A DNA stretch of 64,000 nucleotides from Candidatus Yanofskybacteria bacterium (GCA_003514055.1 DOSG01000008.1:121229-185228), one strand, 5' to 3'. Numbered from the stretch's first letter, positions 15,593-16,264 are shown. Made by a program: numbers and translations. The notes: generated by a model from the letters alone, not told the origin.

Positions 15593-15751
15593 GGAAGAAG
15601 GTTCAGGCTTTTTTGGGTGGAGTGCCTGACTTTATCTCCGAATGCCCGCGCCCGAGAGAATCTCGGTGCCGCAGGCAATTGGCAGAAGCTGTCCTTCCTT
15701 CAATTCAAACCTTATGAAAGGACTCCCGCTTCCACCAATAGGTACGACCAG
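15593..15751 (+). repeat. 159-bp perfect direct repeat, copy 1
   Basis: GGAAGAAGGTTCAGGCTTTTTTGGGTGGAGTGCC...CACCAATAGGTACGACCAG is identical to 16106-16264. Confidence 0.8.
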
Positions 15752-15773
15752 GCCGTCGGTTCGTGGTCCATCC

Positions 15774-16019
15774 TTACCGGGGGCCGCAGGACGTGCAGGC
15801 GTTCATCGTGCAGACGTTGTAGCCGAACGGGCGGGCCAGGAAGTCATACCACGGGCAATCCTGAGTGACGACCGTCATGCACTCACCCGAGGGGTTGTCG
15901 TAGCCCGCGTCACTCGGGTCGCAGTAGGCGGGACGAGCATCGACGCGGGTCGATTCCGCGATGGGAATGACGATGACCGCGATCAGGAGCATGATGGTGA
16001 ACAGTCTACGCTTGGACAT
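15774..16019 (-). CDS. GC-rich small secreted/membrane-anchored cysteine-rich protein
   Basis: From the internal ATG: MSKRRLFTIMLLIAVIVIPIAES (signal/TM), then a mature part of about 58 aa with 8 Cys. GAGGT lies 5 nt upstream. Sits exactly between the two 159-bp repeats. GC about 60 % versus about 38 % background. Confidence 0.4.
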   Translation of the reverse strand: MSKRRLFTIMLLIAVIVIPIAESTRVDARPAYCDPSDAGYDNPSGECMTVVTQDCPWYDFLARPFGYNVCTMNACTSCGPR

Positions 16020-16105
16020 GGATACCTCGGGTTGTTGGGAATGGGTGAACACCGCTTTGGGCGGCCGTACCTTCTTCTTCGCATCTTCCACGACTTACAG
16101 ACTTT

Positions 16106-16264
16106 GGAAGAAGGTTCAGGCTTTTTTGGGTGGAGTGCCTGACTTTATCTCCGAATGCCCGCGCCCGAGAGAATCTCGGTGCCGCAGGCAATTGGCAGAA
16201 GCTGTCCTTCCTTCAATTCAAACCTTATGAAAGGACTCCCGCTTCCACCAATAGGTACGACCAG
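16106..16264 (+). repeat. 159-bp perfect direct repeat, copy 2
   Basis: Identical to 15593-15751. Confidence 0.8.

Follow-up and report, generated by a model that had tools for sequence, protein, structure and literature searches.

Tandem amplification of bacterial genes proceeds by unequal homologous exchange between flanking direct repeats, for example IS, REP or rrn copies. The locus described here lies in a window of 64,000 nt (the whole stretch of DNA that was analysed; GCA_003514055.1 DOSG01000008.1:121229-185228) from Candidatus Yanofskybacteria (CPR/Parcubacteria) of Rifle groundwater, and resembles such systems in that identical direct repeats in the same orientation (R, 159 bp) bracket a gene-bearing segment (X, 354 bp, 15752-16105), that copy number varies between assemblies of one population, and that (R-X)n-R arrays, deletion of X and circles as a by-product are to be expected. 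It differs from them in that R is a unique 159-bp structured non-coding module and not an IS or REP copy, that the unit is only 513 bp long, and that the copy-number variation is read from assemblies.

Integron cassettes are comparable in size (~0.5 kb), in carrying one short ORF and a structured repeat of ~60-160 bp, in the occurrence of cassette-size circles and in a composition that is not that of the host; the present locus is unlike them in lacking attC core sites, a single bulged hairpin, a nearby IntI, an attI/Pc arrangement and an array of mixed cassettes. Nor does it resemble an autonomous small circular replicon, as the 513-bp unit is without a replication-initiator gene and its only coding signal is that of an 81-aa peptide. 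With respect to its product, a possible point of comparison is offered by small disulfide-rich secreted peptides of bacteria, for example the defensin-like bacteriocins (laterosporulin, actifensin), which are exported, have a mature part of ~50 aa with six Cys, and carry a CxxxC…CxC signature. The peptide encoded here is like them in mature length (~50 aa), in its six Cys and in its predicted export, and unlike them in that its Cys spacing is without CxxxC…CxC, no profile matches it, no immunity or transporter gene is adjacent, its leader is a predicted Sec signal and not a double-glycine leader, and its structure models reach a pLDDT of 53-61.

Tandem repeats form high-coverage cycles in assembly graphs that are hard to distinguish from plasmids (bioRxiv 10.1101/048942), and tandemly repeated genes collapse in assemblies (PMC6868369). 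These 'whirls' and collapsed families share with the present locus that a repeat longer than k gives a cycle and self-closing contigs that overlap by k, and that deposited genomes differ in copy number, gaps and breaks at one place. They describe the behaviour of data and not a biological function, whereas the duplication of R at the present locus is real.

Results

The direct repeats (Table 1) are identical over 159 of 159 nt, as originally predicted, and a search of the window permitting up to 3 mismatches returned these 2 matches, with 0 in 100 dinucleotide-preserving shuffles. Identity stretches to 163 nt with a single mismatch (15589/16102), and beyond that is at noise or chance level. 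The start-to-start spacing of R is 513 bp, which makes 1.31 copies of a 513-bp unit in the window. Further copies of R were found neither elsewhere in the window nor in the searched metagenome collection or the viral collection (IMG/VR), and a sensitive self-BLAST of the 445-nt flank returned no older, decayed copies of the unit.

On both strands R folds as three separate hairpins (sense z = -3.8, antisense z = -2.6). GC content by codon position is flat in R and in the small ORFs that overlap it, and R and the 445-nt flank were ruled out as coding sequence, being without codon periodicity in any frame. Rfam searches of R and of the surrounding island, at the gathering threshold and at E <= 1, gave only noise. 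Each repeat had also been described as containing a hairpin followed by a T tract; this did not hold, since the plus-strand T6 tract (15609-15614) is enclosed by a weak hairpin, antisense to the gene, rather than following it, and R yielded no terminator-like site.

Table 1. Features of the locus, in positions of the window, ordered along the minus strand from the promoter to the terminator.
Feature	Position	Strand	Remarks
Sigma-70-type promoter	16519-16546	-	TTGACA, 16-nt spacer, TG, TATAAT
Long leader hairpin	16371-16487	-	21-nt arms, 90% complementary, 75-nt spacer
GC-rich non-coding flank B	16265-16330	-	between host-type leader and upstream R
R, 5' of the gene (sense strand)	16106-16264	-	non-coding, predicted three-hairpin RNA module
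5' UTR, 86 nt	16020-16105	-	Shine-Dalgarno GAGGT 16028-16024 (read from sequence)
81-aa precursor gene, stop codon included	15774-16019	-	signal peptide residues 1-28 (predicted), 53-aa mature part
R, 3' of the gene (sense strand)	15593-15751	-	identical to 16106-16264
513-bp repeating unit R + X	15593-16105	no strand	contigs L003, L004, L005 and L006 are exact circular permutations
Non-coding 3' region A	15203-15592	-	~60% GC, ~390 nt, no codon periodicity in any frame
Intrinsic terminator (predicted)	15160-15202	-	stem-loop CTCGTGCTGACC…GGTGGCACGAG (15202-15171), then TTTTTT (15170-15165)

The minus-strand ORF between the repeats is a true gene, because its GC content by codon position is 0.51/0.52/0.85 (GC3 0.85), 19 of the 46 codons for the same amino acid differ synonymously from those of a 58%-identical homologue, and a Shine-Dalgarno sequence (GAGGT) lies 4 nt ahead of its ATG. 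It is the sole ORF in the unit with a coding signature, and GC3 and synonymous substitutions thus bear out the original prediction that it is the only plausible gene between the repeats. A plus-strand ORF of 142-248 aa (15642-16142) is annotated as 'hypothetical protein' in GenBank and JGI (OGN36292.1, OGN38041.1, OGN38042.1, KKT15906.1, KKT53580.1, HBX58547.1), and its GC content by codon position (0.69/0.52/0.54) is without third-position enrichment. Because the peptide frame is the gene, these antisense 'hypothetical proteins' are judged to be spurious; they overlap the real, unannotated peptide gene.

The N-terminus of the precursor begins with MSKRR, continues into a hydrophobic core (Kyte-Doolittle 3.4), and has V-D-A at the predicted cleavage site, so that a basic n-region, an h-region and small -3/-1 residues of a Sec signal are all present in the sequence. 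The mature part is ~53 aa long with 6 Cys, spaced C-x13-C-x7-C-x14-C-x4-C-x2-C, in place of the ~58 aa with 8 Cys given in the original prediction. Relatives were collected with HMMER, run exhaustively against 1.84 billion cluster representatives, and by a profile search of 5.8 billion clusters, producing a family of only 6 members, all 81-90 aa long with the same six Cys and an invariant CPWY motif. The Sec-type layout recurs in all six, in line with the signal peptide of the original prediction, each having a basic and hydrophobic N-terminus and small -3/-1 residues (e.g. A-S-A, G-H-A, A-I-A). The description of the locus as a small gene for a Cys-rich, predicted Sec-secreted peptide bracketed by long direct repeats is thereby supported.

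No match better than E = 0.05 was obtained for the peptide in Pfam, NCBIfam, PHROG or PDB sequences, and neither a profile match nor a characteristic Cys pattern placed it among the defensin-like bacteriocins, the SCIFF/ranthipeptides or the lantibiotics. The Pfam lists for 6922-23779 contain no radical-SAM, ABC-transporter or immunity gene among its neighbours, and no relatives were found in GTDB representative genomes or in the metagenome contig collection. By these searches the family is an orphan, undescribed so far, and the bacteriocin- or toxin-like identity put forward in the original prediction finds no backing from any known family. A phage or plasmid origin of the locus was rejected, as neither tblastn nor blastn gave a match in INPHARED or PLSDB, and PHROG and IMG/VR were likewise without a match. 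AlphaFold produced unreliable models in two runs (pLDDT 61 and 53), too low for a fold search, and structure-based assignment of function was dropped. Most likely, the peptide is a putative extracellular, disulfide-bonded effector, either antimicrobial or acting on the partner cell of the episymbiont.

The relative P0019 is encoded by an ordinary gene, present in single copy on a chromosome, with its own promoter, Shine-Dalgarno sequence and terminator, beside STAS, PurH-like and CheW genes and flanked by no repeats; the flanking repeats are therefore specific to the present locus, and not a property of the gene family. The other family members examined are likewise ordinary single genes without repeats. 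A donor element shared with the contig of the closest homologue (L001), or with other GC-rich islands of the window, was rejected, only the peptide gene being common.

The locus reads as one predicted minus-strand transcription unit of ~1.35 kb, in the order consensus promoter, structured leader, R, peptide gene, R, region A and intrinsic terminator. The promoter (16546->16519) has 12 of 12 consensus positions and an extended -10, and sits in AT-rich DNA of host type, directed towards the island. The AT-rich leader (16265-16515, 251 nt) folds with z = -4.4, and the segment 15148-15592 with z = -4.0 in sense and -2.8 in antisense. About 80% of the predicted transcript is non-coding. Since R flanks the gene within the transcription unit, it would be present in both the 5' and the 3' UTR of the peptide mRNA, and in RNA its most probable role is to support stabilisation or processing through hairpins at either end of the cistron, as judged from single-sequence fold z-scores only. 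No second promoter or terminator was found inside the 513-bp unit, so that any dosage benefit of additional units would depend on read-through. Region A also contains an 18-nt direct repeat (15282-15299 and 15379-15396, 97 nt apart) with a CTACGGCGGCCGCCA core that includes a NotI palindrome; in the predicted fold each copy pairs with the palindromic half of the other.

The many assemblies of the same population agree elsewhere and disagree at this locus only. R is longer than every assembler k used (100-141), and the locus is therefore a loop in the assembly graphs. The JGI contigs L007 and L025, together with 14 similar places, are identical to the window (1.31 units); most of the long contigs (~15, from JGI and ENA assemblies) make a single traversal. 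GCA_001795935.1 (L009/L018) has 2.31 units with two copies of the gene, marked by the consecutive annotated GenBank proteins OGN38041.1 and OGN38042.1 at the duplicated unit, on a contig that ends at 15144; this path is the path choice of one assembly. GCA_001795955.1 (L008) has a 27-N gap inside R, and L010, L014 and L026 are contigs that terminate inside R. The GW2011 assemblies of 2015 (L015, L016) have differing losses of 29-53 nt in both R copies: the two L015 copies both restart at R position 61 (99 nt before the end of R), and the left L016 copy is interrupted at R position 99. These deletions were rejected as real alleles and are likely mis-joins, the breakpoints corresponding to the unitig ends expected at k = 100. 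Four short contigs from other assemblies (L003-L006) are exact cyclic permutations of the unit. Three of them are closed loops whose ends overlap by exactly k (640 bp at k127, in two cases, and 654 bp at k141); the fourth, L006 (636 bp, k141), has a terminal overlap of 123 and was seen in 11 samples.

The de Bruijn graph of A-(R-X)n-R-B was simulated. With flanks included, n = 1, 2 and 5 gave identical unitigs, among them a 636-bp unitig at k141 that matches L006, and a closed loop of 513 nodes (printed as 513 + k) arose only when flank edges were missing. Closed loops thus need absent flank edges, and by this assembler behaviour the unit is implied to be in excess over its flanks in those samples, that is, in at least three assemblies. 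The 1.31 copies of the window are the minimal walk through the graph loop and not a measured copy number. The original prediction had listed an assembly artefact as grounds for abandoning it, and this caution was justified as far as the printed copy number is concerned, which is the assembler's choice; it does not extend to the repeat itself, which is real. The suggestion of a recent duplication was not upheld, since R exceeds k and the graph is forced to collapse, so that both copies are one collapsed node and their perfect identity says nothing on age.

All four junctions (A-R, R-X, X-R and R-B) were found in independent contigs (L002, L010, L014, L007), so that the occurrence of R two or more times is genuine, as is the linkage of the island to the host at either side; the B-to-R junction is also present in L010. 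This bears on the idea that the chromosome carries A-R-B or one R-X, the second R having been merged from another molecule or organism that shares R. An A-R-B chromosome with a separate R-X circle would be indistinguishable from A-R-X-R-B at k < 159, and the locus is mis-assembled in several deposits. Against this, X-R-A is contiguous in L002 without branching, and both A-R and R-B recur across different assemblers and samples, so that X is physically linked to R and to A; a 513-bp molecule with only the 81-aa peptide gene would have no replication function and would need a chromosomal source; and no alternative flanks were found among the contigs carrying the gene. We consider such a merger very improbable.

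A more serious contender is that every cell has a fixed R-X-R (1.31 units), and that a repeat longer than k has produced the N-gap, the loops and the 2.31-unit contig as artefacts. It accords with the single traversal of the ~15 long JGI/ENA contigs, with a graph topology that is the same for every copy number of at least 1, and with the unbranched passage through X-R-A in L002. It does not readily account for the loops with an overlap equal to k in at least three assemblies, where flank edges are missing and all 513 loop edges are present, as the loss of flank edges alone is unlikely at equal depth; and one assembler placed two full units. On this evidence a fixed structure is rather unlikely, and on balance we lean towards an R-X-R locus that amplifies and contracts through homologous recombination between its repeats.

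The closed loops also bear on an excisable, integrating mini-cassette, with R as attachment site, a free 513-bp circle, Campbell insertion, and an integron-like or unknown recombinase. Closed 513-bp loops occur in three assemblies, (R-X)n-R with a non-integer 0.31 copy is what a circle integrating at R would leave, and the composition of the island differs from that of the genome. The DNA between 15560 and 16300, though, has no RYYYAAC/GTTRRRY core sites on either strand, R forms three independent hairpins and not one end-pairing stem, and the Pfam lists for 6922-23779 contain no integrase or transposase. The unit is of one kind only, with no mixed array; R recurs neither elsewhere in the window nor in the searched metagenome and viral collections, and repeats are lacking beside the other members of the family; homologous recombination, moreover, would passively produce circles too. 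The att-like excisable cassette of the original prediction finds no support in these features (attC core sites, a recombinase and a single stem all being absent), and a mini-cassette is improbable. Amplification mediated by the repeats is the best fit of the three mechanisms that had been put forward, the assemblies showing 1.31 units, 2.31 units and closed loops.

The genome of the host has ~40% GC, and the local island (~15150-16330) has 53-63%. An actinobacterial framing of the locus had been suggested and is incorrect, as the host is a CPR bacterium and only the island is GC-rich. The flanking genes encode a PMT-family glycosyltransferase, a 271-aa protein without Pfam match, SerRS, a tRNA-synt_2 protein (a class II aminoacyl-tRNA synthetase) and GreA; taken with the cluster names, these genes place the host in Candidatus Yanofskybacteria. 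The peptide gene has a GC3 of 0.85 vs 0.44 for the host; its few relatives occur in unrelated genomes of 42-62% GC and are themselves always GC-rich. This patchy distribution of the family fits horizontal acquisition. Groundwater Patescibacteria have well-documented HGT islands (PMC12455944).

Other GC-rich islands were observed at 41100-41720, 50250-50800 and 51000-51930, and in L022 (4796-5421, 8001-8936), with 55-66% GC and a GC3 of 0.66-0.89 vs ~0.44 for the host. Their layout is a near-consensus sigma-70 promoter in AT-rich DNA, 1-3 small orphan genes and a terminator, and the orphan genes look membrane-bound or secreted. For the island at 51005-51926, a related CPR species has orthologues of 74% identity at the syntenic position (before rpsT/ftsW); the divergence of the island there (73% nt) is similar to that of host genes (67-71%), and the orthologues are still GC-rich (GC3 0.72 vs 0.34-0.45 for their neighbours). 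Because of this host-like divergence together with a GC-rich composition kept at a syntenic site, at least some GC islands are old, inherited and not ameliorated, which calls for caution in reading the repeat-bearing island as a recent acquisition. In one strain of the related species, the syntenic GC-rich gene for a 188-aa protein is immediately preceded by an IS200-type Y1 transposase gene (L023, 614-1042), which L022 and L024 lack. A short block of 60% GC (47900-48100) is found just upstream of uvrB (48178-50202), in surroundings of 40% GC.

The left edge of the island (15147) abuts a dispersed intergenic element of ~260 nt, which occurs at 14890-15150 (+) and, inverted, at 25600-25870 with ~80% identity; contig L009 stops at 15144. 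The element has conserved blocks, including GGTCGAGGGCAA and GTGCGAGGGTTACCTAT, and is without an Rfam match; copy 1 has an extra hairpin insert (15012-15050). Its interpretation as a gene start shared with mreB was rejected. A 386-kb JGI contig (3300025152; L013, 8227-13785) is 100% identical to window positions 6922-15147 and diverges at 15147, continuing, without the island, into a gene for a PDDEXK_1 nuclease and a cluster of PMT_2/glycosyltransferase genes; it is either an island-free strain allele, or an assembly switch or mis-join at a copy of the dispersed element. Directly after the PMT stop codon lies a GC-rich (52-58%) element of ~170 nt (14714-14880). A 14-bp stem (GGCCCAAGCCUAC / GUAGGCUUGGGCC) closes it and encloses several hairpins; its fold z-scores are -5.1 (plus strand) and -5.7 (minus strand), Rfam gave no match, and it is a candidate structured RNA or palindromic element. 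About 7 kb from the island, an 827-aa ATPase (6193-8676, minus strand) has DUF87/HerA and TrwB/TraG coupling-protein-like domains, and might have to do with the uptake or transfer of DNA in this CPR bacterium.

Discussion

In the recombinational reading that we favour, R-X-R would be the basic chromosomal structure, and its two R copies, 513 bp apart, would be the substrate for homologous (RecA-type) unequal exchange, R serving at the DNA level simply as recombination homology. Exchange would expand the locus to (R-X)n-R or delete X, with passive circles as a by-product, and the population is probably heterogeneous in copy number, some cells or samples at least having two or more units. Since simple tandem duplication yields whole units and an extra 0.31 copy is present, R-X-R would have pre-existed and amplification would be secondary. 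Extra units would raise the dose of the peptide, as a polycistronic array transcribed from the single upstream promoter.

There is a slim chance that the closed 513-bp contigs are real molecules, R-X being excised as a circle and re-inserted at R by a recombination activity encoded elsewhere. If so, the locus would represent integrase-less, integron-like amplification and shedding of a secreted effector gene in a CPR episymbiont, and the GC-rich non-coding segments, R among them, would have a function as structured nucleic-acid elements and not be passive homology. The locus is probably ordinary repeat-mediated gene amplification and not a new kind of mobile cassette, and recombination between direct repeats is already a well-known mechanism. 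Its value thus lies in the correction of an annotation, in a copy-number flag, and in the nomination of an orphan secreted peptide of a CPR episymbiont: the deposited Yanofskybacteria assemblies conflict here, carry a spurious antisense protein and miss the real peptide gene.

A very small CPR genome would be spending a strong promoter, and possibly several tandem copies, on an orphan peptide predicted to be secreted and disulfide-bonded, and the peptide is therefore a reasonable candidate effector of cell-cell interaction or antagonism. The islands of small genes that stay GC-rich at syntenic sites across related CPR species may matter more.
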